This document shows positions 6,238 to 57,898 of a DNA stretch of 64,000 nucleotides, piece by piece. Location of the stretch: positions 20,096-84,095 of the forward strand of contig CALXXY010000003.1 in NCBI GenBank assembly GCA_944392815.1. The letters run 5' to 3'. The notes beneath the pieces are model-generated. The model had not been told where the DNA came from. It was given only the letters and a program-made list of their open reading frames with translations, and ran no database searches. The translations under genes were made by a program, and so were the position numbers. This stretch comes from an uncultured Alphaproteobacteria bacterium. GTDB taxonomy: Bacteria; Pseudomonadota; Alphaproteobacteria; Rs-D84. Each line of letters begins with the position of its first letter. Within the stretch, counting starts at the first letter, position 1.

Positions 6238-8178
6238 TTACACATGTCCCTTTAATGCGATGTAAATTTGCCCCAAATCTGTTTTGGCCAACGTCCCGGC
6301 CAATTTATCTGTACCATCGGCCGCACGCGCCGCATTCAGCACTTTATCAAAACTGCGCACAAATTGCGTTGCCTGTGACCGGAACACCGAATCAGATTTC
6401 AACATTTCGCGCACCTGCTTTTTATCCGCCGCAGACATTATTTTCGCAAACCATTTGGAAAATATTGTTTTATCCCCCGCATGATATTTTTTCCACACCA
6501 CGTCCGGAATTTCCACGCCCGCCGCCCGGGTTAAATCCAACGTCTGCTCATGCAGTTTTTCCAACATTTTATCACTTTGTTTCAGAAAATCGGACGCACT
6601 GACCCGCCCATATGTCGCGGCCGACGGCGTGGCACTTATCGCGTCCATCGGCGCAGTGGCGCGTGCAACCATCATTTGTTTATTCAACGTCTGCATGGTA
6701 TTAACGGCCTTGGTATAATCAGACATCAAATCAATCATTTGTTGACGTGAAGTGCCGGCCAAATCCTCCAGTTTCACGGCAGATTCAGCAATAGTTTCAG
6801 TGGATTCCGTCACCGTCTGTTTCATCAGCGCAATTTTTTCATTCAGATTTTCAACAATTTTCTGCAAATTATCGCCAGTATTCACAGAATCACGCGCCAA
6901 ATCGGGCAGGGCCGAATAATATTTTTCAATCAATTCAGACAGCGGCTGCAATTGCGCCGTGGTTTCGGCCGACATTTTTATCAAATTTTCCGACTGTCCC
7001 GACAACTGTGTATGCGCCGTATTCATTTCCATCAATGTTTCGCGCACCCCGGTTGCCATTGCGCGCACAGATTCCGAAAACGCGCCCGCCGCGGTTTTTG
7101 TATTTTCCAGCGTGGAATTCGCCACCCCAGACACAGTTTTCAATTCGCCAACAATATCATTTGTGAAACCGGTAATATCTTTGTTGAAATGATTGCACAG
7201 TTCGGTCAATTCCTTGGACACATTACGCACAGACGATTCCGTCGTGGTGGCGGACGCCATCAGGCCCTCGACCGCGTCAGTCAATTTGCGCACCTGGGAT
7301 TCGATGGACGTTTCGGACAAACGCACCTGGCCGGCGACAACATTCGCGGTATTTGTTAAATTATTCACCTGGCTGGTCAATTGTTTTTTTGCCTGTTTCC
7401 CAAACGTATCCAATTTGTTCAGATGCCCGTCCAGGGCTTTGTTATTATTTTCCATAATTTCGGCATAATCAGCCGCCGCAGTTTTCACATTTTCAAACCC
7501 CGCCGCGGTATTTTGTGTTAACTCGCCCAATTTTTGCTGCATGGCATCATATTCAGCATTTAAATTTTTCATCTGTTCGGTATTGGATTCGAATTCAGAT
7601 TTCAAATTATCAGACAATTCCGCACCCGACGAAATCCAGTTATCTATATTCGATTGAATTTGTGCAACGTGCGTTGCAACATCTTGATTTGTCATATCAA
7701 TTTGCGACAATAATTCATTGACTGTGGCGCGGAATTTTTCAGTTGACAATTCCACATCATGCCACCCATTTGAATCCACAACACCACGTAAATCTGACAC
7801 AGTATTTTCCAACCGCTGGGACATAACCGCTATTTTTTTTGTCGCATCATCAGTCGACGCAACCAGCAGACCATTTTGTGTATCCAAATCATTTTTTAAT
7901 TCAGTGGCGGCCGCAATTTGCGCCCCCAGCGCGTCACGAATTTTTTGGAAATTCGATTCCATTTTAATCATTTCATCAGCCAGGATATTATTCAACACCC
8001 GCACAGCGTCCTGAACCCGGGCACGTTCCGGTTGGGTCATAATTTTTAACAGTGAATTCATAACCTTTTGTGATTTTCGCGACACAAAAAACAACACAAC
8101 CAGCGCGCACAGCAACAATCCGCCCAAAATTGCGCCACCAATCAAATACATTTGCACAAATTCCATCAATCCCCCCAT
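6238..8178 (-). CDS. Membrane-anchored long coiled-coil protein (unknown function)
   Basis: N-terminal TM helix (LIGGAILGGLLLCALVVLFFV) followed by about 550 aa of heptad-like Q/E/L/T-rich sequence. No catalytic motif recognised. Confidence 0.5.
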   Translation of the reverse strand: MGGLMEFVQMYLIGGAILGGLLLCALVVLFFVSRKSQKVMNSLLKIMTQPERARVQDAVRVLNNILADEMIKMESNFQKIRDALGAQIAAATELKNDLDTQNGLLVASTDDATKKIAVMSQRLENTVSDLRGVVDSNGWHDVELSTEKFRATVNELLSQIDMTNQDVATHVAQIQSNIDNWISSGAELSDNLKSEFESNTEQMKNLNAEYDAMQQKLGELTQNTAAGFENVKTAAADYAEIMENNNKALDGHLNKLDTFGKQAKKQLTSQVNNLTNTANVVAGQVRLSETSIESQVRKLTDAVEGLMASATTTESSVRNVSKELTELCNHFNKDITGFTNDIVGELKTVSGVANSTLENTKTAAGAFSESVRAMATGVRETLMEMNTAHTQLSGQSENLIKMSAETTAQLQPLSELIEKYYSALPDLARDSVNTGDNLQKIVENLNEKIALMKQTVTESTETIAESAVKLEDLAGTSRQQMIDLMSDYTKAVNTMQTLNKQMMVARATAPMDAISATPSAATYGRVSASDFLKQSDKMLEKLHEQTLDLTRAAGVEIPDVVWKKYHAGDKTIFSKWFAKIMSAADKKQVREMLKSDSVFRSQATQFVRSFDKVLNAARAADGTDKLAGTLAKTDLGQIYIALKGHV

Positions 8179-8307: not shown

Positions 8308-10962
8308 ATGGCTAAAAAATTCACACTTTCACCGGCCCAGGATACCGCCGCAAATCCCGCGGAAAACGTATGGGTCCAGGCAAACGCCGGCACAGGAAAA
8401 ACCAGCGTTCTGGTTCAACGACTGTTGCGTATTTTGTTTCGCACCGACCAAATTGATGATTGTGGCATATTATGCCTGACGTATACCAAGGCCGCGGCCG
8501 GCGAAATGCGCAACCGTATTTTGCGCGAATTACAAAATTGGGCCATGGCGTCCGACGATGAATTAATTGAATTATTGGACAACGTGTCCGAACGCAAACC
8601 CGCGACACTGGACGACATCGCCCACGCCCGCATGGTGTTTTTTAAATACATCGATGACCCAGAATTGTTAAAAATCAAAACAATCCACGGTTTTTGCGAA
8701 GAAATCCTGCGCCAATTTCCTATCGAGGCCGGCATATCCCCATCATGGACATTGGTATCAGACGACACACAACGCGTACTATTACAGGACGCATTTTCAC
8801 ACCTGGTCAATTCCACGAATAACGCAACTGTGTCGGACGCATTTTCATATTTGGTGGAACGAATTGATGAAAATCGCATCGGTGATTTAATGACATTGTT
8901 GGGCGAACATTATCGTACATTTTTTCAGATAAACGATATTATTAATTATCGCAAATATTTCATTGATACGATTACAGAATTTTTAAAATTAAACGACCCG
9001 ATTCAGACCGAAATTTCACCCGAAAAACTGCAAAAGATCATCGATTTGGCCACAATCGATATAAATGCATCAAAAAAGCCGGCACAATACTTGATAGACA
9101 TTGTTAATATTACAAAACAATACATTAACAAAACGGCAGATTTTGAAAAATATAAATCTGCGTATTTAACGCAAAGCGGTACACCCATCAAGAATGTTTC
9201 GCGCAAAGATTATCTGACGACCGAACAACAACGCGTATATGACGTAAATCAGTACAATTTATCAAAACAAATCTTTGACGACACAATGGCTATATTCGAA
9301 TTGTCGGCCGAATTTGCAAAAATTTACGGCAAATTAAAATCCGAACGCAATCTGTTGGACTTCGACGATTTGATTTTATACACAAAAAAATTGTTTTCAT
9401 CACCGGACACCATGGGTTGGGTTTTGTCGCAATTAAATGTGCACCTGGCGCACATTCTGGTGGACGAAGCCCAAGACACCAGCCCACTGCAATGGGATAT
9501 TTTACGCATGTTGTCGGGCGATTTCTTTACAGACGGCGACACAAAAAACAACCACCATTCATTATTCGTCGTCGGTGACACAAAACAATCAATATATGGA
9601 TTCCAGGGCGCGGATCCGCGCGCATTCGCCGCCAGTCGCGACGAAATTTCGAACCAAATTCAACAAAATATGCGTACACTGCAAAATATTCCATTGGTGC
9701 AAAGTTTTCGTTCTATGCCGCAAATTTTGTACGCTGTTGACGCATTTTTTAACAACCCAGACGTTCGCGAGCAAACGGGATTTATAAACAATTCGCACAA
9801 ATGGGCAAAAACGGATCCGAACGCATTTGTGGAATTACACAAACTGGTCGATGCGAACACAACGGACACAAACATAAACGAATACCTGGGACAAATCGCG
9901 GACAAAATCCAATCGGTTATAACCGATGACAAATTCAGCCCAAACGACATCATGGTGCTGGTACAAAATCGTGAACCAATGACGCCATTGCTTGTTCGCG
10001 AATTAAAACGTCGAAATATCCCCGTCGCAGGCAGCGACCGCATTATTTTGCCAAAATTTCCGGCTATTCGCGACCTGTTAAACCTGACACGTTTTTGTAT
10101 TAACCCCGACGACGATTTCAGTTTATGTTGTACTTTAAAAAGTCCAATTTTCAGATTGTCCGAACGTGATATTTTTAATATTTGCAAAATTAAAAATGAC
10201 GAAAATAATACGCGCAAAAACGCATGCAGCGATTACAAACCAACCACTGTTTTTGATGTTTTGTTAAACACCCACCCGGACATTCATGCCCAATTGTCAA
10301 AAATGATAAATTGGTCAGCAACAGTGGCCCCATATTCATTTTACACGAACGTATTGGACACAAACAATATTCGCAGCAGCATGATTGCAGCGCTGGGGAA
10401 CCAGATTGTTGACCCATTGGAAGAATTCCTGACCATATGCCTGGCATATGAACGCACACAATGCGGGACACTGCGGCACTTTTTAAAATGGTTCATCACC
10501 GGCGGCAGCACCATCAAACGCGATATGGACACGGCCCCCGGCGTACGCATAGTGACAGTCCACAGCAGCAAGGGCCTAGAGGCCCCCGTAATATTCCTAA
10601 TCGACACAGTACGCACACCTAAACAGGAACATGTTTTTCCAATAGCCCCGGAAATGCAGTCCGCCACATTACGCGCCCGTGGCGCAAATTTACCATCACC
10701 ATGGCTATGGTCACCACGAGCAAACAATTCCACCGCCCGCGATCGCGCAGTCGCGTCCACATCAAAAACAAAAATCGCCGAATACTATCGGTTATTGTAC
10801 GTCGCCATGACGCGCGCGATAAAACGATTGTACATATATGGATTTGCACCAAAAACCAAACCTGCCGCAGAATTGTCATGGCACACCCAACTGTGGCGCG
10901 TATTGTCCACAAACGAAAAATCAACCGTCACCGACGAAATCATCAGGATAAACGATGTCTGA
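8308..10962 (+). CDS. addA: Double-strand break repair helicase AddA, helicase portion (UvrD/Rep superfamily 1)
   Basis: Walker A ANAGTGKTSVLVQR near the N-terminus, ILCLTYTKAAAGEM, motif II VDEAQDTSPLQW, and C-terminal helicase motifs (VTVHSSKGLEAPVIFL, LLYVAMTRA). Confidence 0.85.
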   Translation: MAKKFTLSPAQDTAANPAENVWVQANAGTGKTSVLVQRLLRILFRTDQIDDCGILCLTYTKAAAGEMRNRILRELQNWAMASDDELIELLDNVSERKPATLDDIAHARMVFFKYIDDPELLKIKTIHGFCEEILRQFPIEAGISPSWTLVSDDTQRVLLQDAFSHLVNSTNNATVSDAFSYLVERIDENRIGDLMTLLGEHYRTFFQINDIINYRKYFIDTITEFLKLNDPIQTEISPEKLQKIIDLATIDINASKKPAQYLIDIVNITKQYINKTADFEKYKSAYLTQSGTPIKNVSRKDYLTTEQQRVYDVNQYNLSKQIFDDTMAIFELSAEFAKIYGKLKSERNLLDFDDLILYTKKLFSSPDTMGWVLSQLNVHLAHILVDEAQDTSPLQWDILRMLSGDFFTDGDTKNNHHSLFVVGDTKQSIYGFQGADPRAFAASRDEISNQIQQNMRTLQNIPLVQSFRSMPQILYAVDAFFNNPDVREQTGFINNSHKWAKTDPNAFVELHKLVDANTTDTNINEYLGQIADKIQSVITDDKFSPNDIMVLVQNREPMTPLLVRELKRRNIPVAGSDRIILPKFPAIRDLLNLTRFCINPDDDFSLCCTLKSPIFRLSERDIFNICKIKNDENNTRKNACSDYKPTTVFDVLLNTHPDIHAQLSKMINWSATVAPYSFYTNVLDTNNIRSSMIAALGNQIVDPLEEFLTICLAYERTQCGTLRHFLKWFITGGSTIKRDMDTAPGVRIVTVHSSKGLEAPVIFLIDTVRTPKQEHVFPIAPEMQSATLRARGANLPSPWLWSPRANNSTARDRAVASTSKTKIAEYYRLLYVAMTRAIKRLYIYGFAPKTKPAAELSWHTQLWRVLSTNEKSTVTDEIIRINDV

Positions 10963-11404
10963 CACAAAACTGCGCGATATCATATCGCAAATGAAACACA
11001 CAAAAATCGCAACCGACACAGGTAAAAAAATGCACACGAAAATGCAGGGCATCATCATTTCCGACACCGCCCCACACGGCGACGCTGAAATACGCGCAAA
11101 AATCGCACAACGCCCTGAATTGACGCATTTTTTTGCGACAAATTCTAAAACTGAGGTTCCCATCGCAGGTCACATAAACGGCAAATTCATCAGTCGCCGC
11201 ATCGACAGATTAATCATCGACGACACAAACAAAACAATAGACATTCTGGATTACAAAACAGACACGAACAAGACCGCATTTATTGATAAATACACCGCAC
11301 AAATCAACGAATACGCCACGTTATTGCGCGACATATATCCGAATTACACAATTCGCGGCTATATTTTATGGCTGCATGATTTTGAATTGACCAAAATCAT
11401 ATAA
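10955..11404 (+). CDS. addA: AddA C-terminal PD-(D/E)XK nuclease domain, encoded as a separate ORF overlapping the helicase ORF by 8 nt
   Basis: RecB-family nuclease signature GHINGKFISRRIDRLIIDD ... ILDYKTD (D..D/EYK). Begins ATGTCTGA, overlapping the upstream stop TGA, in a different frame. Confidence 0.65.
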   Translation: MSDTKLRDIISQMKHTKIATDTGKKMHTKMQGIIISDTAPHGDAEIRAKIAQRPELTHFFATNSKTEVPIAGHINGKFISRRIDRLIIDDTNKTIDILDYKTDTNKTAFIDKYTAQINEYATLLRDIYPNYTIRGYILWLHDFELTKII

Positions 11405-11409
11405 AAACC

Positions 11410-13098
11410 TTGAAAAACATCACACAGTACGACTATAATTCAGGCATGTTAACACGGCTGTATATATCTAATATAGTTTTAATAGAAAAACTGAACCTGG
11501 AATTCGGTGCGGGATTAAACATTTTGACCGGCGAAACAGGGGCGGGCAAAAGTATTCTGTTGGACGCCCTGGCACTGGCGCTGGGCGCGCGTTCCGACAC
11601 GGGCCTGGTGCGTCACGGTTGCGACAGCGCAAATGTAATCGCAGAATTCGACACCATTCCCACCACACTGAAAAATATATTGGACGAAAACGGCATTGAA
11701 TTTGACGACGCATTAATATTGCGCCGTACATTGACATCAGACGGCAAATCACGCGCATGGGTAAACGATATTCCTGTATCGATAAAAACGCTGAAACAAA
11801 TCGGTGACGAATTGGTGGAAATTCACGGTCAATTTGCAAACCATACACTGCTGAACCCGACAACGCACCGCAATTCATTGGATATATTCGGGACAAAAAA
11901 CAACCCTGAATACAACGCGTTATTGGAAACAGTTCGCGCAAATTATAACGAATATCACACCGCGCAAAATAAATTGACCGAACTGCAACAAATGTTGGAA
12001 AAATCGGCCACAGAACGTGAATTTTTGGAACACAATGTCCGCGAATTGGAATCTTTGAACGTTCAACCGGGCGAAGAAAACGAATTGGCCACCAAACGCG
12101 CCACCATGATGAACGCGGAAAAAGACGCGGCAATTTTATCCGACGCCATTGCGGCATTAAACCCACACGGACAATCGCTGTCCGAACACATTTTTGCAGC
12201 CGCGAACACATTATTGCATATAAAAACAGACCCAAATCCATACGCTGAACAAATCGACAATTTATACGGCGTGGCCAACGCATTATCTGAAATAGAAGAA
12301 AAATTGGCACCCAACGAAATAGACACAGCCGACCTGGATTCAATCGAAGAACGTCTGTTTGCCATTCGTGCCGCCGCCCGCAAATATCGCGTTTCGGCCG
12401 ACGAACTGCCGCAAACACTGACAAAAATGGCCGCGGAATTAAACACGATTGAAAATTCAGACGCAGAATTAAAAAAATTAACTTCCTGCGTCACCCAGAA
12501 AAAAACCGAATTTGATAAATCGGCCACAAAATTAACCGTCGCCCGCACAGCGGCCGCCGAACAATTGCGCGCACAAATATTGGCCGAATTGCCGGATTTA
12601 AAACTGGGCACCGCGGATTTCATGGTGGAAATCACGCCATGCGCGCCATCTGCAAACGGGATTGATAATATCACGTTTATGATAAAAACGAACCCGGGCA
12701 TGCCATTTGCGCCATTGCACCGTGCGGCGTCTGGTGGCGAATTGGCACGCCTAATGTTGGCATTGCGCGTGGTGCTGGCGGATACAAACACTGCGCACAC
12801 ATTCATATTCGACGAAATCGACACAGGCATCAGCGGCGCCACGGCGTCCGCCGTGGGCAACCGGTTAAATCGCCTGGCTGCCACGTCCCAGGCGTTGGTA
12901 ATCACCCATTCGGCCCAGGTTGCCGGCTATGCCGACAAACATTTCAAAATTGCGAAATCTGTGGAAAATGATGTCACAAAAACAACAGTGACCGAAATCA
13001 TCGGTGACGCGCGCATAAATGAAATCGCCCGCATAATCAGTGGCGCCGAAATCACCCCAGAATCACTGGCCACCGCAAAAACATTGATAAAAAATTAA
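11410..13098 (+). CDS. recN: DNA repair protein RecN
   Basis: N-terminal Walker A LTGETGAGKSILLDAL, long coiled-coil middle, C-terminal signature/Walker B (FIFDEIDTGISG). The true start may be the internal MLTRLYISN around 11446. Confidence 0.9.
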   Translation: MKNITQYDYNSGMLTRLYISNIVLIEKLNLEFGAGLNILTGETGAGKSILLDALALALGARSDTGLVRHGCDSANVIAEFDTIPTTLKNILDENGIEFDDALILRRTLTSDGKSRAWVNDIPVSIKTLKQIGDELVEIHGQFANHTLLNPTTHRNSLDIFGTKNNPEYNALLETVRANYNEYHTAQNKLTELQQMLEKSATEREFLEHNVRELESLNVQPGEENELATKRATMMNAEKDAAILSDAIAALNPHGQSLSEHIFAAANTLLHIKTDPNPYAEQIDNLYGVANALSEIEEKLAPNEIDTADLDSIEERLFAIRAAARKYRVSADELPQTLTKMAAELNTIENSDAELKKLTSCVTQKKTEFDKSATKLTVARTAAAEQLRAQILAELPDLKLGTADFMVEITPCAPSANGIDNITFMIKTNPGMPFAPLHRAASGGELARLMLALRVVLADTNTAHTFIFDEIDTGISGATASAVGNRLNRLAATSQALVITHSAQVAGYADKHFKIAKSVENDVTKTTVTEIIGDARINEIARIISGAEITPESLATAKTLIKN

Positions 13099-14330
13099 AC
13101 TTTCACAACGCCATCGGCGAATTCAATCGACGCAGGACGTGCACCGTCCGCCCGACTGATTATTTGATTTTTTTCATCACGCACAATTGCATATCCGCGC
13201 GATAAAACGCTTTTATAACTTAACGAATTCAACATTTGCCCTAAATGATTCAATCCCTGGGTCATGACCATCATTTTATTTTGCAATATGTTCGGAAACG
13301 CAGCCACGGCGTCCATACGCCCACGCGCAGCAACAATTTTCCCGTTAATTATCACATTCAAAGTACGCGAAATATCGTCCAAACGCTGTTGCTGTTCCAT
13401 CACCAATTGTTTTGGATTTTTTACAACAATGGATTCCACGCGCGCCCGGGCATTGGTCAAACGCGTAGTAAAATTATTCGACAACCTGTGCCACAAATTA
13501 TCCAATTCCTGAATCAACGACAACTTGGTCGGCACAACCATTTCGGCCGCCCCAGTCGGCGTCGGCGCGCGCACATCGGCCGCATAGTCAATCAGCATCC
13601 AATCCGGTTCGTGTCCGACACCGGAAATCAACGGAATTTCACTGGCCGCAGCGGCACGAACAACAATCTCTTCGGAAAAAGGCAACAAATCTTCCAACGC
13701 ACCGCCACCACGTGCAACAATAATCACATCAACATTTTTTGCACGATTAAAATATTCGATACCGGCGGCAACCTCGGCCGCGGCAGTTGTGCCCTGAACA
13801 GTCGCAGGATACAACACAACCGTCACCGGAAAACGTTCACGCAATCTGTTTTGAATATCCTGAAACGCGGCACCGGTCGGACTTGTCACCACGCCAATTC
13901 GCTGAGGCAGTCGGGGCAGCGGCTTTTTACGTGCCTGGTCAAACAGTCCCTCGGCGGCCAGTTTACGTTTGCGTTCCTCCAACATTTTCAGGATTGCGCC
14001 CACACCCGCCATTTCTATTTCAGACACAATAATTTGATAATTGCTGCGCGCGGGATACGTTGTAAAACGCCCGGTAATAATAACCTCCAACCCGTCTTCT
14101 AATTTAAACGGAACGGGCGTACCGCGCCAAATAATCACAGATATGGCCGCCCCAGCATCCTTTATCGTCATATACATATGCCCGGACGTGGCGCGCGTAA
14201 TCTGCGACAATTCACCACGCACACGAATGCGCGGGAACGCCGTTTCCACGACGTTTTTCAATAACGCAGACGCATCAGTCACGCTAAACACTGTATCCGG
14301 CTGGACAAAAGGTTGTGGTTTTTCCAACAT
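13095..14330 (-). CDS. xseA: Exodeoxyribonuclease VII large subunit
   Basis: N-terminal OB fold (VRGELSQITRATSGHMYMTIKD) and an XseA-type catalytic core. Overlaps recN convergently by 4 nt. Confidence 0.9.
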   Translation of the reverse strand: MLEKPQPFVQPDTVFSVTDASALLKNVVETAFPRIRVRGELSQITRATSGHMYMTIKDAGAAISVIIWRGTPVPFKLEDGLEVIITGRFTTYPARSNYQIIVSEIEMAGVGAILKMLEERKRKLAAEGLFDQARKKPLPRLPQRIGVVTSPTGAAFQDIQNRLRERFPVTVVLYPATVQGTTAAAEVAAGIEYFNRAKNVDVIIVARGGGALEDLLPFSEEIVVRAAAASEIPLISGVGHEPDWMLIDYAADVRAPTPTGAAEMVVPTKLSLIQELDNLWHRLSNNFTTRLTNARARVESIVVKNPKQLVMEQQQRLDDISRTLNVIINGKIVAARGRMDAVAAFPNILQNKMMVMTQGLNHLGQMLNSLSYKSVLSRGYAIVRDEKNQIISRADGARPASIEFADGVVKV

Positions 14331-19720: not shown

Positions 19721-20185
19721 CTATAATTTTACAATTTTATTATCAAAATCCACATTTGCACCAACAAACGAAACAAAATCGCCGTTATCCAGTTCGATAA
19801 TATCGCCGGCCCCAAAATTTTGAAATCCGGCAATGCGCCCGATTTCCACACCATAGCGCAGCACACGCATACCAATTAAATCGGCCTGATAATATTCCCC
19901 AGCACCCGGCGCCGGCAAATCATCACGATTGATAAACAATTCAACACCACGCAACATTTCAGCCGCATTGCGGTCATTCACACCATCAATCCGGGCGATA
20001 ATAACAGACGACGACGGCACCACGCGCACGAAATGAAACGCCCCATCTGGAACATGCGTCCCATGCACCCGCAAATCTTTCATATCAACGGGTGTGGCGG
20101 TATATGTTTGGACACGAACCTCGCCCCGGACGCCCTGGGGTGCGACAATTTTCCCGACCAAGATTTGTTTACCGTTATCGTGCAT
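19721..20185 (-). CDS. rimM: 16S rRNA processing protein RimM
   Basis: KQILVGKIVAPQGVRGEVRVQ N-terminal RimM motif and C-terminal PRC barrel. Start set at MHDNGKQ. Confidence 0.8.
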   Translation of the reverse strand: MHDNGKQILVGKIVAPQGVRGEVRVQTYTATPVDMKDLRVHGTHVPDGAFHFVRVVPSSSVIIARIDGVNDRNAAEMLRGVELFINRDDLPAPGAGEYYQADLIGMRVLRYGVEIGRIAGFQNFGAGDIIELDNGDFVSFVGANVDFDNKIVKL

Positions 20186-36964: not shown

Positions 36965-37189
36965 ATGTCGCATTGGGTAAAAACAATTGTTGCCACATTC
37001 GCTATTTTTCAACTGACGCCATTATTTGCGGCAGAAACGCAGCAAATTGCATCGGTTTCATATGTTAACAAAATAACAGATGAATTGGATACCAAGGTTG
37101 ATATGGGATCAGCCCAAACAATATCCGGGGAAAAAACTTTTTCAGCCAGTCCGTTGGTTCCAACTCCACCATTACCACAGGATTTATAG
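36965..37189 (+). CDS. Small secreted hypothetical protein
   Basis: Signal-like N-terminus MSHWVKTIVATFAIFQLTPLFAA. Stop abuts the next gene start. Confidence 0.35.
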   Translation: MSHWVKTIVATFAIFQLTPLFAAETQQIASVSYVNKITDELDTKVDMGSAQTISGEKTFSASPLVPTPPLPQDL

Positions 37190-38994
37190 TGTTCAAAAAA
37201 ATCTGTGCCGCCATACTTGCAATATTTTTAATACTGCCAAATGTTGCAATCTCGGCGGAAATGGTAAATGTTGAATACGTTCACAATATCCTGCGTTGGC
37301 GCTGGGGAATTGATTTACCATATAATACAAACCTGACAAATCCTCATGTCGCTGCAAATATGAAATATTTGTTAACGGTTGTTGATATTGCAAACAAGCG
37401 ACTGAATGGTAAACAAACAACAGATTATGGCAACAGCGACTACGCCACACTGGCGGCGGCGGACACAGTTGCCACGAACACAGCGATTGACACATTGGTT
37501 CGTGGGCCTGGATTTTATTTGACGACCACTCCAGATACGACGAATTTTTCAATTACTATTACCGCCGCTGGAACTTTTGCAATTGATTGGGGTGACGGGG
37601 AACGCGAATCCATTGTCGATAAACCAGTTGCCGCAACAACATACTCTCACACATTTAAAACCCCGCAATCACACACAATTCGCATAACTGGCACCGCCAC
37701 AGATTACAGCGATGCCAACAACGTCAAAACATTATCTTTTAATAACAACACTGCTATTGCCAGAATTAATGGCAACCTGGGTTCTATATTTCCAACACTA
37801 TCGGACGGGACAAATCCGCGTTTTACCGAATTGTTTAACGACGCGACCAATTTGACGGGCGAAATTCCATCAGATTTATTCGACGGCATTACCGGTGCAG
37901 CAACGACATATATGTTCGGCAGCTTGTTTCGCAATTGCTCGAAATTAACGGGCGAAATTCCCGCCGATTTGTTTGCGGGCATCACAGGCCCATTGGCCCA
38001 AGGTACATTCGAAGCATCTTTTTATAGTTGCAGTGGACTGTCCGGCAGTATTCCTGGCGAATTATTTTCACGCATAACCAGCGACACACATGAAGTTTTA
38101 TTTAATCAAACCTTTCGCGGTTGCACTGGATTATCTGGTTCAATTCCCGGTGATTTATTCCAGGGTATCCGTGGCACGCCACGACGTGCAATGTTTTTTG
38201 CCGCATTCCGTAACTGCAGCAACATAACGGGTTCAATCCCAGGCGAATTATTTGCCGGCATCCAGGGCGCGCCAGCAACTTCTGTATTTGCCGAAACATT
38301 TGCATACACGGGACTAACTGGTTCTATTCCCGGCGAACTGTTCTCGGGCATCCAGGGAGCACCAGCCCATCAATTATTCAGCTATACATTTGCTGGTAAT
38401 CGCAGATTAACCGGTCAAATTCCAGGTGAATTATTTGCAGGCCTCCAGGGTGCACCAGCCCCATATGTATTCTCGAATACTTTTGTTCAATGCAGCGGCC
38501 TTGATAATCATATCCCAGCCGACCTGTTTGCGGGCATTCGTGGACAACCAGCCGAAGGAATGTTTGAGAGAACATTCAATGATGCCGGTGTAAGTTCAAT
38601 ACCCGATGGCTTGTTTGCTGACATCCAGGGTGAACCCGCGAACTTTATGTTTGAATCAACTTTTAACTGGAACCCAAGGTTAAACACAATTCCAGATGGT
38701 TTATTTGCTGGAATTTCTGGATCTCCGGCAACAAACATGTTTAGCAATACGTTTAATTATACGAGTATAACAAATATCCCAGACAATTTGTTCGGCACAT
38801 TCACAGATAACCCAGCGAATGGTATGTTTACCAGCACATTCGCCAATTGTCAAAACCTGACGGGACCATCTGCCAAAAATGGCGACGGCCGCTATCTGTA
38901 CGAGGTATTCACAAACATCACATCTGATATGAACACATACGCAAATTCACCAAATTTGTCGGATTACGACCAAATTCCAAACAACTGGAAATAA
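37189..38994 (+). CDS. Secreted protein with about 13 tandem 31-aa LRR-like repeats (C.SxLTGxIPxxLFxGIxGxPA)
   Basis: Signal peptide MFKKICAAILAIFLILPNVAISA. Repeats are evident at both protein and DNA level (they produce spurious minus-strand ORFs). Confidence 0.6.
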   Translation: MFKKICAAILAIFLILPNVAISAEMVNVEYVHNILRWRWGIDLPYNTNLTNPHVAANMKYLLTVVDIANKRLNGKQTTDYGNSDYATLAAADTVATNTAIDTLVRGPGFYLTTTPDTTNFSITITAAGTFAIDWGDGERESIVDKPVAATTYSHTFKTPQSHTIRITGTATDYSDANNVKTLSFNNNTAIARINGNLGSIFPTLSDGTNPRFTELFNDATNLTGEIPSDLFDGITGAATTYMFGSLFRNCSKLTGEIPADLFAGITGPLAQGTFEASFYSCSGLSGSIPGELFSRITSDTHEVLFNQTFRGCTGLSGSIPGDLFQGIRGTPRRAMFFAAFRNCSNITGSIPGELFAGIQGAPATSVFAETFAYTGLTGSIPGELFSGIQGAPAHQLFSYTFAGNRRLTGQIPGELFAGLQGAPAPYVFSNTFVQCSGLDNHIPADLFAGIRGQPAEGMFERTFNDAGVSSIPDGLFADIQGEPANFMFESTFNWNPRLNTIPDGLFAGISGSPATNMFSNTFNYTSITNIPDNLFGTFTDNPANGMFTSTFANCQNLTGPSAKNGDGRYLYEVFTNITSDMNTYANSPNLSDYDQIPNNWK

Positions 38995-48708: not shown

Positions 48709-51075
48709 TTATATCAATGGCGGGAAACAATCGCCCCCTGATTGTGGGCAACAATTAAATCCCATGTCGCCCATATCTGTATAAATCTCGCCTGGGCAAC
48801 AGCCATTCACATCGGGCGCACTGCCGTCTGGACACGCCGGCAAATTTGATGGAACTTCTTCCTGCCACACAACGGACGTCACCGATTGCGGCACGTATTC
48901 ATCATTGGTCGCAACTGCGCCACCGCCAACATTCGTGGTCGCACCCGCCGTCACCACAGACGGCCCAGTCGTATCCACAGCCACCATATTTTCATTACGC
49001 AACGTTTCCGTATCGTAATTCGAATCGGCAACGAACATATTTTCATTCTGTGATACGTTGTACGCGGGCTTGCTGGCCAAAATATCCTCTTCGGATTCCA
49101 CAACAACTGATTCGGGTTCGCTGACCGGCACAGGCGGTGTCACATTCACCGATTCGATAACAACATCAGCGTCCTGGACAGGTTGCGGTTCCAACACAAC
49201 CGTTTCCGGTTCGGGCTGCGCCACAGGTTCCGGTTCACTGACCGGCACAGGCACAGGTTCTGGTTCGGGCTGTGCCACAGGTTCCGGCTCGTCTACAACG
49301 GGCGCCGGCACTTCGACAACAGCGGGCTCGACCACCGGGGCGGGCGTTTCAATTTCAGGTATAAACGGACTGTCGGCCGCATCACCGCTTTCATCAGTCG
49401 CGACATCAGCCACCTGGGCTGTTGGCACCGTTGTGGTTAAATCGGGCACCTGGTCATTGGTATTACGCTGATACAGCCACAATGTAAATATCGACAACCC
49501 GATCAATAATATCAACAACAGATAATACACAAACGTCGGCTTGCGCGGGGCAGGATTTGTCGGCGCAGCGGTCCCCGTTATTGGCGACACAGGGCGGGGT
49601 GCATTCGCACCGGCGGGTGCATTTACCGCCGGTGACACCGGTCGCGCCGCGGCACTGGCCGCTGGGGCGGGTGTCGGCATCGGATTTTGCATTCCCGCAT
49701 TATTCCCGGGCGCCGCCACACTATCGTCCGCAACCGGCGGCACCGGGGCGGGACGTACAGGTTGTGCGGGTTGAACTGGCTGTACAGGTTCAGTCGTATT
49801 CGCCCCCATTAATTCAGAATCCAATTGAACATTTGAATCCACATCATTCGGCTGGGGAATATCAACCGACGTAATCGTATCCAACACAGGCGCAGATTGT
49901 GGCACAGTGGGCGCAACATCGTCGTTCGTCACAGGCGTCACATTTATTGGTGCACTATCCCCAACCGGGGCGGGCGCCGCCGCGGGTTCAGATTGCGTTG
50001 GTGGCGTAAACGACAACGGTTTTTCATCAATCACACTGTCATACAAATCATCAGTCGACTGACCAGAATTTTCCACAGGACTGGACACACCGAATTCAAT
50101 CGGTTTAAACGCGATATCTTCGTCCATTATATCTGGATTTTTGTCGAACAAAGGTTGTACTTCGTCATTTTTCATTGTTTCGTCGGCCATATTTTCCGCC
50201 TTTGGTTCTGCTGTATTAAATTCAATTTCTTTGTCATATGTTATATCAGCGACGTCATTGTCATCATCAACATCGTCCACGTCATCATCATACGAAATAT
50301 TATACGACGTCACCACAGGTGCGTCCACAGATTCCGCCGGCATAACAACATTTTTCGCCGGCGCCACATTTGCGACCATGGTCGCGTCACTGGTTGCGGG
50401 GCGGGCCAAAATCTCGCGCGCGGCGGCGGCATCTTCATCAGCCACTATCAAACGCCGTTGTGCATTGGATAAACGTTTTTTCGCGCGACGCAATTTTTCA
50501 TTTGTCGCATCAATTTGTGCATCTGTCCGTAAAATTTTCGACGCAGATTGTTTTGTCGGCTCGCGCCCAACTTTCTTTTTTTGCTGTGATAACTGTGCCC
50601 GCAAAGAACGCAATTTGACCTGTAATTCATCGATAGTTTCACGCGCACGGGTAATGGTTTCGCGCGCCCGGTCAGCATTCGATTCCGCCATAGCCAACCG
50701 TTCAGCCGCAGCGCGCCGGACTGAATCCTCGCGAAAATGGGTTAATGCAACCAGCGCATCGGACAAATCAGCCCCATTTTCATACGCACGAATTAAATCG
50801 TCGTATTCCGACAGCCCGCTGTATTCAATATCCAACTTTTGATATTTATTATTTTTCTTTGGCCGCACAGTTTCCAAATCAACCCCATAATCATTGGCCA
50901 AAATATCGTCCCATTTGCGATCACCCACGGGATTAATCACCAACAACGCGTTAGGTTTGCGATTATCAACGGTATTATCCAACACGAACACCAATTTACC
51001 GTCCGCGTCATAATACGCCCGCAGCGCATTTCCGCCGATATTATATTCCCTGAATGTTAAAACAGAATTATCCAT
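48709..51075 (-). CDS. Large Pro/Glu/Val-rich membrane protein (unknown function)
   Basis: 788 aa: N-terminal globular and coiled-coil region, acidic stretch, one TM helix (FVYYLLLILLIGLSIFTLWLY), PEPV-type repeats, and a C-terminal Cys cluster (NGCCPGEIY...FNCCPQSGGDC). Confidence 0.5.
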   Translation of the reverse strand: MDNSVLTFREYNIGGNALRAYYDADGKLVFVLDNTVDNRKPNALLVINPVGDRKWDDILANDYGVDLETVRPKKNNKYQKLDIEYSGLSEYDDLIRAYENGADLSDALVALTHFREDSVRRAAAERLAMAESNADRARETITRARETIDELQVKLRSLRAQLSQQKKKVGREPTKQSASKILRTDAQIDATNEKLRRAKKRLSNAQRRLIVADEDAAAAREILARPATSDATMVANVAPAKNVVMPAESVDAPVVTSYNISYDDDVDDVDDDNDVADITYDKEIEFNTAEPKAENMADETMKNDEVQPLFDKNPDIMDEDIAFKPIEFGVSSPVENSGQSTDDLYDSVIDEKPLSFTPPTQSEPAAAPAPVGDSAPINVTPVTNDDVAPTVPQSAPVLDTITSVDIPQPNDVDSNVQLDSELMGANTTEPVQPVQPAQPVRPAPVPPVADDSVAAPGNNAGMQNPMPTPAPAASAAARPVSPAVNAPAGANAPRPVSPITGTAAPTNPAPRKPTFVYYLLLILLIGLSIFTLWLYQRNTNDQVPDLTTTVPTAQVADVATDESGDAADSPFIPEIETPAPVVEPAVVEVPAPVVDEPEPVAQPEPEPVPVPVSEPEPVAQPEPETVVLEPQPVQDADVVIESVNVTPPVPVSEPESVVVESEEDILASKPAYNVSQNENMFVADSNYDTETLRNENMVAVDTTGPSVVTAGATTNVGGGAVATNDEYVPQSVTSVVWQEEVPSNLPACPDGSAPDVNGCCPGEIYTDMGDMGFNCCPQSGGDCFPPLI

Positions 51076-53100: not shown

Positions 53101-54267
53101 ATGTTTTTACGACCAATCGTATTTTCTGTATTGTGCACATTCATCGGCATACACGGTGCGAATGCCCTGATGTGGAATGATCCGAATGTAAACCTTGTCC
53201 AAAGCGTATCTGATCACCGTTATCGTGACGCCAACACGGGTCGATATGTAAGTACCGCCGGAATGCCAGCGGTACCGCCAGTGGTCGGCAGCCCAACTGG
53301 TACTGGTACAGGCACCGGAACCGGTACTGGTACAGGAACTGGAACAGGTACGGGAACCGGTACTGGTACAGGCGCTGGAACAGGTACGGGAACTGGAACC
53401 GGTACTGGTACAGGCGCTGGGGCTGGTGGCGGTGGCACCGCCGGCAGAATTCGCACCAATTGGTCAAATATGTCACGTGGCGCACGTATCGGCACTGGGA
53501 TTGGTATCGTCGCTGGTACAGCGGGTGTTGTGACATCTGGCCTGGGGAACCAGGAACACGGTGCCGGCAACGTGGTTGGTGGCGCATTAAGTGGTGCCGC
53601 AGCGGGCGCCTCTGTTGGCAGTTTAATCGCCCCAGGTCTGGGTACTGCTATCGGTGCAGGTGTTGGCGCATTGGCCGGTGCATTGTACCCTGCGGCAAAG
53701 GTATTTTCCGAAACAGATTGCCTGCGCGATCCTGTCACCGGGGCATACACATGTTGCAATACCGCATTTAACAAAGGCGACCGCGTCGTTCCAATTGGCG
53801 GATTCATGTTCTGTGGCGCCGAAGATGGCTCGCAAAACACACCGTTCCAGGTACGTCAATGTCTGCAGGGCAAACCAAAGGACGAATCAACCTGGACCGA
53901 CCAGGGTAAAAAATGGTACGAAGGCGGCATGTGGGTTGATGATTTTTGGGCACCTGAATGCACGGTCAGATTTTGCAACACCGCCCCAACCCAGGGCATA
54001 GAAAATTATATTATACCGGTCCAGGACACAACAAATTTCTGTTGGGATTGGAAATGTATTGATGGATACGAACGTTCCGGGGACACATGTGTCATCGCGG
54101 GCGGTGGCGGCAACGGAACGACGGGTGGCGCACCGGTCACACCATATACAAATCCGACAAACCCGACCGCCGATCAATACGATGAATTAATCAAACGACT
54201 GCAATTGCAACGCCAATTAATATTGCAGGAATGCGGTTATATGGTGAACACACAAAACCAAAATTAA
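53101..54267 (+). CDS. Secreted protein with (Thr-Gly)n dipeptide repeat, glycine-zipper segment and Cys-rich C-terminal domain
   Basis: Signal peptide. About 22 TG/AG dipeptides encoded by an imperfect GGTACN 6-bp tandem repeat (53299-53435). Confidence 0.45.
   Translation: MFLRPIVFSVLCTFIGIHGANALMWNDPNVNLVQSVSDHRYRDANTGRYVSTAGMPAVPPVVGSPTGTGTGTGTGTGTGTGTGTGTGTGTGAGTGTGTGTGTGTGAGAGGGGTAGRIRTNWSNMSRGARIGTGIGIVAGTAGVVTSGLGNQEHGAGNVVGGALSGAAAGASVGSLIAPGLGTAIGAGVGALAGALYPAAKVFSETDCLRDPVTGAYTCCNTAFNKGDRVVPIGGFMFCGAEDGSQNTPFQVRQCLQGKPKDESTWTDQGKKWYEGGMWVDDFWAPECTVRFCNTAPTQGIENYIIPVQDTTNFCWDWKCIDGYERSGDTCVIAGGGGNGTTGGAPVTPYTNPTNPTADQYDELIKRLQLQRQLILQECGYMVNTQNQN
53299..53435 (+). repeat. Imperfect hexanucleotide tandem repeat (GGTACN, about 22 units) inside a CDS
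   Basis: ggtactggtacaggcaccggaaccggtactggtacaggaactggaacaggtacg... read directly from the sequence. Confidence 0.85.
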
Positions 54268-56036
54268 TGCGGCGGATATTTATATCTTGGCTGATTGCAC
54301 TTTGCGCCACAAATGTGGCGCTTTGTGCGAATGTGACACAAACAACCGCACCAATATCACTGGTCGGGGGTGGGGCGGGTGACATAACCGTCCCGACAAC
54401 GTCGCCAGATTTTGTCCCAATTTCTGATATAAACCAAATCACACCGAACGATACAGAATGCGCCACTGCCGTATTTGCGGACGCGCTGGCCAACAATTCT
54501 GCGGCTGTATCGGAAACGGACGAAGATATTGTCATACGTCAATGGATTTATCAAACTTTTGCAAATCCTGACGTTCTGCGCGCGGTTATGAAATGTCCCG
54601 AATTCGCAAACGCTGCCGATGACGAAACGATTACACTGCAACCAATAAAATACGTTTTTCCGGGCGGGCGCGAAATAGTCATCAATTACGAAACCCAACC
54701 AAAAATTTTGGCCCAACGAATAACATTGGGCGAAAAAAATGAATTGGCTGATTTGAATCCGAATCCGCGTATTGACCCGACCGACGGCACGGTTTGGACA
54801 AACACAGATCCTGCATGGTATGCAATCATGGTTGTTGAATCGGGCACGCTGGATGAATTCGTGGGTCCTGGGAAAAATAAGACGGTATCCATGCGATATA
54901 TTAATGACAACATAGACAGGTTATTTCCACATGGCAACCAGTGCACCAGCAAATCCGCACTGGCCGGGGACAGAAGAATGATAAACGTTGCCACCCGCGA
55001 AACAGTTGGCATTGATAACGATACAAATGATTACTATGTGGCGGGCGACGTAAGTTTGCAATGGATATCTTATCTGGAAATCGGTCTGGACGTGGCAATA
55101 ACAGTTTTAACGATGGGCGGCGGCACAGTTATTTTGGGCGCAACAAAATCCGCCCGCGCGTCCCGTGCATTGCACGGATTAACAAACACAATCAAAACAT
55201 TGCGCACGACAGATTCCGTACGCGATTACGTGCGCATATCGCAACAATATACGCGCGTGGCCGAACAATTGCGCAACATTGACCGCGTCGCCGACGCCGC
55301 GCAATACGAACGCCTCGCCGCCCAGGCCGATGATTTGGCGCGCACTATGCGCACACTGGAACAAACAGACGACAACGTTCGGCAATATCGCAATGCCACA
55401 AACGCATTCACATCACTGAATCAATACCGCCGCACTTTGCGCAGTTTACGCACCCCACAACGTGGCAATATCATCGCACGCGCATGGCGCGCAATCCGCG
55501 CGGCAAACACAGGCGGGAAAACCATTCGCAACGCGGAAAAAATCGCCCGCAGCAGCACACTGTCCGGCCAAATTCGCGATTGGTTGTTTCAATCAACATT
55601 AACAAATGCCGGGGCATTGGCGCGCCTGGAACGCACGGGCGGATACATATACGGCGCATTGCGTTTTTTCGGTGGCATGTATGATTGGACGGAAACCAGC
55701 ACCGGCGAATTCACCAGTGGCATTGATTTCAAACCATTGACACTGCTGTCGGCCGACGATTTACAGGGCCAGGAAAATGTCATAAATCACGGCATGTGGC
55801 TGATGTGGGCGGGCAATGCATATTCCGCCGCAGACGATGACGCCGCATATCTGCAGGCCATGGATTTTGCCAACAAATTCCATTTCAACCTGGACAAAAT
55901 TCAAACGGAACAAAACAATCACGCGTGCAATGTGGATATTTTCGTCGTGCGTCCAATAATCCATAACCCCGGCACAGATAACGCAGAATTATATTACCTG
56001 ATAATGAATGACACCCCGTGGACAACGCGCGAATAA
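54267..56036 (+). CDS. Large secreted hypothetical protein
   Basis: Start at MRRIFISWLIALCATNVALCA (signal peptide). C-terminal half rich in R/A/T heptad-like repeats. No known domain. Confidence 0.45.
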   Translation: MRRIFISWLIALCATNVALCANVTQTTAPISLVGGGAGDITVPTTSPDFVPISDINQITPNDTECATAVFADALANNSAAVSETDEDIVIRQWIYQTFANPDVLRAVMKCPEFANAADDETITLQPIKYVFPGGREIVINYETQPKILAQRITLGEKNELADLNPNPRIDPTDGTVWTNTDPAWYAIMVVESGTLDEFVGPGKNKTVSMRYINDNIDRLFPHGNQCTSKSALAGDRRMINVATRETVGIDNDTNDYYVAGDVSLQWISYLEIGLDVAITVLTMGGGTVILGATKSARASRALHGLTNTIKTLRTTDSVRDYVRISQQYTRVAEQLRNIDRVADAAQYERLAAQADDLARTMRTLEQTDDNVRQYRNATNAFTSLNQYRRTLRSLRTPQRGNIIARAWRAIRAANTGGKTIRNAEKIARSSTLSGQIRDWLFQSTLTNAGALARLERTGGYIYGALRFFGGMYDWTETSTGEFTSGIDFKPLTLLSADDLQGQENVINHGMWLMWAGNAYSAADDDAAYLQAMDFANKFHFNLDKIQTEQNNHACNVDIFVVRPIIHNPGTDNAELYYLIMNDTPWTTRE

Positions 56037-57613: not shown

Positions 57614-57700
57614 TGGTGGGGATAGTGGGACTCGAACCCACACGGTCGCAATGACCAAAGGATTTTAAGTCCTCAGCGTCTACCATTCCGCCATATCCCC
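57614..57700 (-). tRNA. tRNA-Leu (anticodon UAA), type II
   Basis: Reverse complement GGGGATATGGCGGAATGGTAGACGCTGAGGACTTAAAATCCTT...GGTTCGAGTCCCACTATCCCCACCA with a long variable arm. Confidence 0.8.
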
Positions 57701-57728
57701 CATTGCAATTTGAATCGATAAAAAATTT

Positions 57729-57804
57729 TGGTGGAGCTGATGGGACTCAAACCCACGACCTCTACGATGCGAACGTAGCGCTCTATCAACTGAGCTACAA
57801 CCCC
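57729..57804 (-). tRNA. tRNA-Ala (anticodon CGC)
   Basis: G3:U70 pair in the acceptor stem and anticodon loop TTCGCAT. Confidence 0.8.
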
Positions 57805-57811
57805 AGAACTT

Positions 57812-57898
57812 TGGTGCGGATAAGAGGACTTGAACCTCCAAGGCATTGCTGCCACTAGTACCTGAAACTAGCGCGTCTACCAATTCCGCCATATCCGC
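57812..57898 (-). tRNA. tRNA-Leu (anticodon CAG), type II
   Basis: Reverse complement GCGGATATGGCGGAATTGGTAGACGCGCTAGTTTCAGGTACTAGT...GGTTCAAGTCCTCTTATCCGCACCA. Confidence 0.8.

Follow-up and report, generated by a model that had tools for sequence, protein, structure and literature searches.

A split addA gene

Is an addA gene that is broken between its helicase and nuclease domains a sequencing error, a gene in decay or a genuine pair of genes? The question is raised by a stretch of 64,000 nucleotides (nt) from an uncultured alphaproteobacterium of the Rs-D84 lineage (assembly GCA_944392815.1, contig CALXXY010000003.1, forward strand, positions 20,096 to 84,095), the whole of which is referred to here as the window. 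An initial annotation, made from the sequence alone, had described an open reading frame (ORF) for a helicase of 884 amino acids (aa) that ends INDV with a TGA at 10960-10962, overlapped by a nuclease domain (DRLIIDD...ILDYKTD) that begins at an ATG at 10955 in a different frame; the coordinates and sequence of both were confirmed. It had left the choice between a recent frameshift, an assembly or sequencing error and a real two-gene arrangement with translational coupling, and it is the last of these that the evidence favours. We conclude, with a probability of roughly 85%, that addA underwent a single ancient fission at the linker between helicase and nuclease, that this was fixed at the base of a Candidatus Enterousia-type clade, and that the two products would be translationally coupled subunits. 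The features at the junction are as follows, in positions of the window.

8308 to 10962, + strand: addA helicase gene (ORF1), 884 aa, a superfamily 1A (SF1A) UvrD-like motor without a nuclease domain
10955 to 11404, + strand: addA nuclease gene (ORF2), 149 aa, a minimal RecB-family PD-(D/E)XK nuclease
10955 to 10962, + strand: start/stop overlap ATGTCTGA of 8 nt, with the ORF2 ATG at 10955-10957 and the ORF1 TGA at 10960-10962

ORF1 matches PF00580 (UvrD-helicase, E = 6.8e-52) and PF13361 (UvrD_C, E = 6.7e-25), and its translation contains the N-terminal SF1A motifs I-VI, among them GTGKT, DEAQD, VGDxKQSIYGFQGA, TVHSSKGLE and LLYVAMTRA before ending in ...IIRINDV. Against the alphaproteobacterial AddA model TIGR02784 (addA_alphas) it aligns over positions 2-902 of 1138 (E = 3.5e-196, 654.9 bits). 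ORF2 lies in the +1 frame relative to ORF1, begins MSDTK and includes RIDRLIIDD...ILDYKTD; it aligns with the C-terminal 104 positions of the same model (1033-1136, E = 1.6e-16, 59.9 bits). Neither ORF reaches the equivalog cutoff of 860.75 bits. The match of ORF2 to PF12705 is weak (21.0 bits, with a Pfam gathering score of 22), and several of its homologues carry a precomputed match to the same family. The helicase half is labelled by NCBI only as 'UvrD-helicase domain-containing protein', and homologues of the nuclease half were mostly unnamed in the sources searched. In the literature that could be searched, neither a split AddA nor a split RecB was found to be described.

AddA loci from environmental metagenomes, gathered by a scan with distant AddA sequences, served as a control set and as the source of an AddB hidden Markov model (HMM). 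None of these environmental AddA proteins is markedly closer than the rest (31-34% identity). A single ORF of 1069-1326 aa encodes AddA in 80 alphaproteobacterial loci from the environment, in line with the earlier statement that intact AddA is normally one polypeptide; the nuclease of the window is a separate 149-aa ORF in another frame, and this holds clade-wide. The split locus descends from AddA, yet departs from the curated family in two features, the single polypeptide and the score cutoff.

Distribution of the split in Candidatus Enterousia and Rs-D84

A search with ORF2 returned 408 homologues. Among the best 120, which reach down to ~50% identity, almost every one is a protein of 145-152 aa that stands alone. 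When 1.84 billion cluster representatives were searched with a profile, 44 clusters fell below 1e-30, nearly all of ~148 aa, with fused proteins of 1000-1200 aa lower in the ranking and one closer exception (P0159, 1007 aa). When one genome per species was scanned, a relative of ORF2 was found to be encoded in 240 genomes. Those bearing a genus name are Candidatus Enterousia, and the rest are unclassified Alphaproteobacteria or Rickettsiales gut metagenome-assembled genomes (MAGs). Enterousia belongs to the order Rs-D84, in which genomes are mostly below 1 Mb (PMC12306168).

The junction was then compared among the 80 species-level genomes that could be evaluated within the Candidatus Enterousia / Rs-D84 clade. 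Comparison with addA of close relatives had been proposed as a check on the initial annotation, and it revealed the same split in 79 of the 80, each with the helicase stop overlapping the nuclease ATG. The overlaps range from 4 to 44 nt and take nine lengths: 4 nt (n = 7), 8 nt (n = 11), 11 nt (n = 19), 14 nt (n = 1), 17 nt (n = 24), 20 nt (n = 7), 32 nt (n = 1), 41 nt (n = 2) and 44 nt (n = 7). Two frame relations occur, with 72 loci sharing the +1 relation of the window and seven having the other (ATGA type). Moreover, the genes may be physically apart. In the termite-type MAG Lab288P3bin104 (L040, 1-2498) a 262-aa gene is inserted between the helicase and nuclease genes, whilst in Rickettsiales bacterium Pcl387_bin15 (L029, 1-6521) the nuclease gene lies near recN and there is no helicase match in the 13.7-kb locus. 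The varied overlaps, the two frame relations and the separated genes exclude both a shared recent lesion and a conserved programmed frameshift. Since it is permanent across the whole Enterousia / Rs-D84 clade, the split is best regarded as an old, selected gene fission. Low identity to the window in one further locus (L170) does not mark a variant; the scaffold there has a gap of 100 N with duplicated sequence.

These observations bear directly on whether a single-base indel has artificially broken a continuous ORF. Nothing favours such an error except the frame change itself. A 70-nt junction sequence is identical across eight independent assemblies from different samples and projects, one of them at 64.7x coverage, and the exact 149-aa ORF2 product recurs on 20 contigs and the exact 884-aa ORF1 product on 10. 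Clustering at 90% gave 69 distinct ORF2 sequences and 104 distinct ORF1 sequences, every listed member being 149 or 884 aa long. A systematic error of the homopolymer type is improbable: there is no homopolymer at the junction, which moreover varies among species, in the length of its overlap and even in whether the genes adjoin. We therefore reject assembly or sequencing error, the probability of which is negligible.

Selection on the two halves

Pseudogenes accumulate in reduced genomes. A recent inactivating frameshift, which would make addA an incipient pseudogene, is thus worth weighing in a clade with genomes below 1 Mb, and a sporadic frameshift of this kind was indeed seen in one environmental addA locus. 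However, the 79 split genomes retain both ORFs intact. Complete copies of ORF2 (143-153 aa) were obtained from 79 genomes and of ORF1 (860-892 aa, with one of 954 aa) from 71. The median ratio of nonsynonymous to synonymous substitution (dN/dS) across measurable pairs is 0.26 for ORF2 and 0.15 for ORF1, with synonymous sites near saturation (median proportion of synonymous differences, pS, ~0.75). The helicase and nuclease halves are therefore separate genes under purifying selection.

Catalytic residues are likewise retained. In an alignment of 37 ORF2 sequences with a mean column identity of 56%, the start Met, H27, E67, D84, D99-Y100-K101, Q116 and Y120 are invariant, and the RecB-family motifs I (E67), II (D84), III (D99/K101) and QxxxY (Q116/Y120) are all present. 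The order of E67, D84, D99, K101, Q116 and Y120 matches that of the catalytic residues of Bacillus subtilis AddA (E1129, D1159, D1172, K1174, Q1200 and Y1204; PMC3321194). Searches of the PDB by sequence, with ORF2 and with its profile, gave no match. An AlphaFold (AF2) model of ORF2 has a predicted local distance difference test score (pLDDT) of 92.4, and its top Foldseek matches in the PDB are AddA chains (4CEH_A, 4CEI_A and 3U44_A, template modelling (TM) scores over the query of 0.59-0.62), followed by Cas4-family proteins (with 9IAB and 4IC1 among the small nucleases), RecE, AdnAB (6PPU_A) and RecB.

With the same split in 79 of 80 species-level genomes, dN/dS well below 1, invariant catalytic residues and an acquired Shine-Dalgarno site (see below), we reject an incipient pseudogene, which is extremely improbable. 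The frameshifted environmental addA (L135) does little to help that explanation, as it is the only one among the 80 control loci and lies within helicase domain 2A and not in the linker. Accordingly, annotators and those who count pseudogenes should not score this addA locus as decayed; what seemed to be a pseudogene or an assembly error is a gene fission, documented across the clade, in one of the core enzymes of recombination.

The addBA region of L135 (6013-9394) has a single frameshift, at about residue 824-845 of the Rhizobium AddA query, and may be a sporadic pseudogene or an assembly error.

Probable origin by fission at the linker

A neighbour-joining tree built from 853 helicase columns placed the 71 split sequences in one clade in 100 of 100 bootstraps. 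The sister group of this clade is formed by fused proteins (P0277-P0281, 1032-1083 aa), the P0159 group (also fused, 989-1035 aa) branches next, and other alphaproteobacterial AddA sequences fall outside. Descent from within the AddA family is thus supported, the closest relatives being fused proteins of 989-1083 aa among which the split clade is nested.

The fused relatives have a variable, low-complexity linker of 35-100 residues that joins the helicase end (...I-x-R-I...) to the first nuclease helix, the motif of which is ...L...ATxxGxxxHxxLQ. The window lacks this linker, and its junction is placed exactly at the linker position. Gene order is also shared with the fused outgroup: in a fused sister (L087, GCA_009777955.1) it runs rpoD, a 645-aa coiled-coil gene on the other strand, addA, recN, xseA and tsaD, and the synteny of the split locus is common to both. 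In the simplest history addA broke once, at the linker, in the ancestor of the Enterousia-type clade.

Expression of the nuclease gene

The sequence immediately upstream of ORF2 contains a candidate ribosome-binding site.

10945 to 10948, + strand: Shine-Dalgarno (SD) core AGGA, within the I-R-I codons near the helicase stop and 6 nt before the ORF2 ATG

The 20 nt that precede the ORF2 ATG are strongly conserved (consensus atCAGGAttacaaaATG). Of 79 loci, 78 have the GGA core, and in 68 it ends 6 nt ahead of the ATG. At 77 of 78 loci the Arg codon of Ile-Arg-Ile is either AGG (64) or CGG (13). AGG is otherwise rarely used: the one at the SD site is the only AGG among 49 Arg codons in ORF1, and 12 genes of the window have two among 323. 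The equivalent Arg codon in the fused sister L087 is CGT. This codon pattern is the signature of a predicted SD site selected at the nucleotide level after the fission. It suggests that a ribosome-binding site can arise inside a coding sequence through the choice of codons. Together with the overlap of stop and start, the SD site points to translational coupling of the two genes.

An alternative is that the two frames yield a fused AddA of ~1030 aa after all, either by programmed +1 frameshifting of the ribosome or by slippage during transcription. Rare AGG codons promote +1 shifts, and here ORF2 is in the +1 frame in 72 of 79 loci with a rare AGG codon 8 nt upstream of its ATG. However, the spacing of the GGA fits an SD site, the ATG is invariant, and the seven loci with an ATGA overlap have the other frame relation. 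In many loci, the window included (TAA at 10949-10951), the ORF2 frame is closed by a stop one codon before the ATG, leaving at most ~9 nt for any shift. Junction sequences are variable with no conserved slippery motif, there is no run of A or T for slippage, and the genes are separated in the two MAGs described above. A programmed-frameshift gene was considered as a candidate class and rejected, given the two frame relations (72 versus 7), the lack of a conserved slippery site, the upstream stops and the separated genes. We regard restoration of the fused protein as very unlikely, and two separately initiated products as the better account of the junction.

The AddB partner

In alphaproteobacteria addB normally lies directly upstream of addA, as the initial annotation had said; this was so in 59 of the 62 control loci with enough upstream sequence. 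One rare exception to the addB-addA order is L110 (87-2042; 6010-8832), where addB is ~4 kb upstream of addA on the opposite strand. The further remark that no addB adjoins the split gene proved correct. No AddB-like sequence was found in the 64-kb window by NCBIfam and Pfam scans of large ORFs, a motif scan, tblastn or the AddB HMM, and none within 10 kb of the locus in 87 clade loci (~1.5 Mb in total) by tblastn and HMM. The HMM was built from 54 AddB sequences and, as a positive control, gave 65 matches in the control loci. An adjacent addB was not found in the fused sister lineages either, and so its absence is older than the split.

In AddAB of B. subtilis the linker of AddA packs against that of AddB to form a six-helix domain (PMC3321194). 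If AddB has been lost, the constraint on the AddA linker that packs against it would be relaxed, and fission would be permitted. An AddA linker that first degenerated and later disappeared in Rs-D84 would be in keeping with the loss or replacement of AddB, a link that is speculative. Taking this further, the whole Rs-D84 lineage may have lost AddB, in which case the split helicase and the free nuclease, held non-covalently, would make up a minimal AddB-independent machine for end resection; we offer this tentatively and consider it rather doubtful. Were it true, the pair would offer a RecB/AddA nuclease domain that is 'untethered' in nature, and if AddB is truly missing there would be a simpler system of double-strand-break resection in bacteria with genomes below 1 Mb.

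Proposed function of the split pair

By homology, one member of the pair would be a 3'-to-5' SF1A motor and the other a 3'-strand nuclease, as in break-resection enzymes of the AddAB type. Ribosomes that end the helicase gene, or that are recruited by the SD site, would initiate the nuclease gene, and such coupled translation would lead to roughly equimolar synthesis of helicase and nuclease. The two proteins would next come together again, without a covalent bond, as an AddA-like helicase-nuclease of 3'-to-5' polarity, by which broken DNA is resected for RecA. AddA normally consists of a helicase and a nuclease connected by an extended linker (PMC3321194). Isolated AddA of B. subtilis is a 3'-to-5' translocase and helicase by itself, and its targeting to DNA ends requires AddB (PMC3064778).

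Several points weigh against a jointly acting, coupled pair. The genes are uncoupled in two MAGs (L040 and L029), and the absence of a nearby helicase gene in L029 means that the nuclease may act alone or with another partner. As the linker is lost in the split form, the geometry of the canonical AddAB complex cannot simply be assumed, and there is no addB near any clade member (10 kb searched on each side). Translational coupling is a prediction from the sequence of the junction, and the binding of the two proteins to each other is presumed.

The same observations would suit subfunctionalisation, whereby the 149-aa nuclease acts independently (e.g. with RecN or another partner), the helicase has become a nuclease-free UvrD/PcrA-like motor, and there is no joint machine. 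In its favour are the nuclease gene of L029, which adjoins recN with no helicase match in the locus, the gene inserted between the halves in L040, the loss of the linker and hence of linker-mediated AddAB packing, and the lack of a nearby addB. However, the overlap and SD site have been kept in 79 of 80 genomes despite saturated synonymous divergence. Such maintained coupling argues for co-expression and a matched stoichiometry. Moreover, ORF2 is a catalytic core only, with no recognisable DNA-targeting domain of its own. On balance subfunctionalisation is unlikely, and two co-expressed subunits of one AddA-like enzyme remain our preferred interpretation.

Neighbouring genes and other features of the window

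The split locus is flanked by the following features.

11446 to 13098, + strand: recN, 550 aa from the ATG at 11446 (TIGR00634, 478.6 bits, alignment from residue 13 of the long ORF)
11410 to 11439, + strand: recN promoter, with -35 TTGAAA at 11410-11415, an 18-nt spacer and -10 TATAAT at 11434-11439
13095 to 14330, - strand: xseA, exonuclease VII large subunit (TIGR00237, 408.8 bits), convergent with recN
6238 to 8178, - strand: upstream divergent gene, 646 aa, a long coiled-coil protein anchored in the membrane by an N-terminal transmembrane helix

The initial annotation had recN starting 6 nt after the nuclease ORF and forming with it a compact repair cluster. The start requires correction. 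The first start codon of the open recN frame is a TTG at 11410, which is also part of the -35 box; the RecN model and the public gene calls in seven of eight assemblies, which give a 550-aa protein, instead place the start at the ATG at 11446, leaving a gap of 41 nt after ORF2. The predicted promoter is a near-consensus sigma-70 site (11 of 12 consensus positions) and the best in the region, and the ATG lies 6 nt past its -10 box. In 68 of 77 related loci an exact TATAAT occupies positions -12 to -7 relative to the recN ATG, and 12 loci have the promoter within the nuclease gene, at its 3' end. This arrangement suggests that recN is probably translated from a conserved leaderless mRNA. Having its own conserved promoter, recN is not translationally coupled to the nuclease gene. 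As a conserved synteny of helicase, nuclease, recN and xseA, the proposed cluster stands. The position of xseA is kept in relatives and in the fused outgroup, and recN and xseA would be neighbouring, separately transcribed repair genes.

The upstream gene is indeed an unrelated coiled-coil protein on the other strand, as had been noted; it has only weak, sub-threshold family matches and no similarity to AddB. Its position is conserved, with 690 aa in L001 of the split clade and 645 aa in the fused outgroup L087.

Elsewhere in the window, four large ORFs (601-905 aa) gave no Pfam or NCBIfam match.

58025 to 60742, + strand: large unannotated ORF
48709 to 51075, - strand: large unannotated ORF
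54231 to 56036, + strand: large unannotated ORF
37189 to 38994, + strand: large unannotated ORF

Most have signal-peptide-like or membrane-spanning hydrophobic segments, with Cys-rich or Pro/Ala/Val-rich low-complexity regions, and '...TGxIPxxLFxGIxG...' repeats occur in tandem in the ORF at 37189. The products are probably secreted, or displayed at the surface of this gut symbiont. A cluster of three tRNAs (Leu-taa, Ala-cgc and Leu-cag; 57614-57898, - strand) lies just upstream of the 905-aa ORF, and the window holds seven tRNAs in total and no rRNA.

Comparison with known systems

The closest known system is alphaproteobacterial AddA (TIGR02784). AddAB has reportedly been studied genetically in Rhizobium etli, and structures are available from B. 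subtilis (PDB 3U44 and 4CEH). The helicase half aligns with AddA end to end and the nuclease half with its C-terminus; the nuclease motifs I-III and QxxxY are shared, AddA chains are the best structural matches, and the split sequences nest within the family in the phylogeny. In contrast to AddA, the window encodes two polypeptides, ~100-130 residues of linker have been deleted, the nuclease domain has shrunk to 149 aa, both halves score below the family cutoff, and there is no adjacent addB.

Cas4 and ACE1, as stand-alone RecB-family nucleases, resemble ORF2 in being small, independent PD-(D/E)XK proteins with a QxxxY motif, and are among its structural matches (9IAB and 4IC1). ORF2 differs from them in its descent from AddA, in the lack of a cysteine cluster among its conserved residues, and in its context, which is neither CRISPR nor Argonaute.

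Coupled overlapping gene pairs of the ATGA or ATGnnTGA type share with the window the overlap of stop and start and an SD site inside the upstream coding sequence. Here, however, each cistron encodes one half of a protein that is undivided in every other lineage examined, and the predicted SD site is made by codon choice at a conserved Arg.

Lastly, RecB of RecBCD is likewise an SF1A motor joined to a RecB-family nuclease through a linker. Its 30-kDa nuclease domain is carried on a flexible tether and docks on RecC, and to our knowledge RecB has always been described as a single chain. The break in the window falls at the equivalent of this tether, and RecB chains are among the structural matches of ORF2. 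Unlike RecB, the pair has no tether, and no RecC- or AddB-like partner was found nearby. The tether between motor and nuclease is central to models of how nuclease activity is controlled, and the split pair thus represents a natural experiment on this covalent connection in enzymes of the AddA/RecB type.

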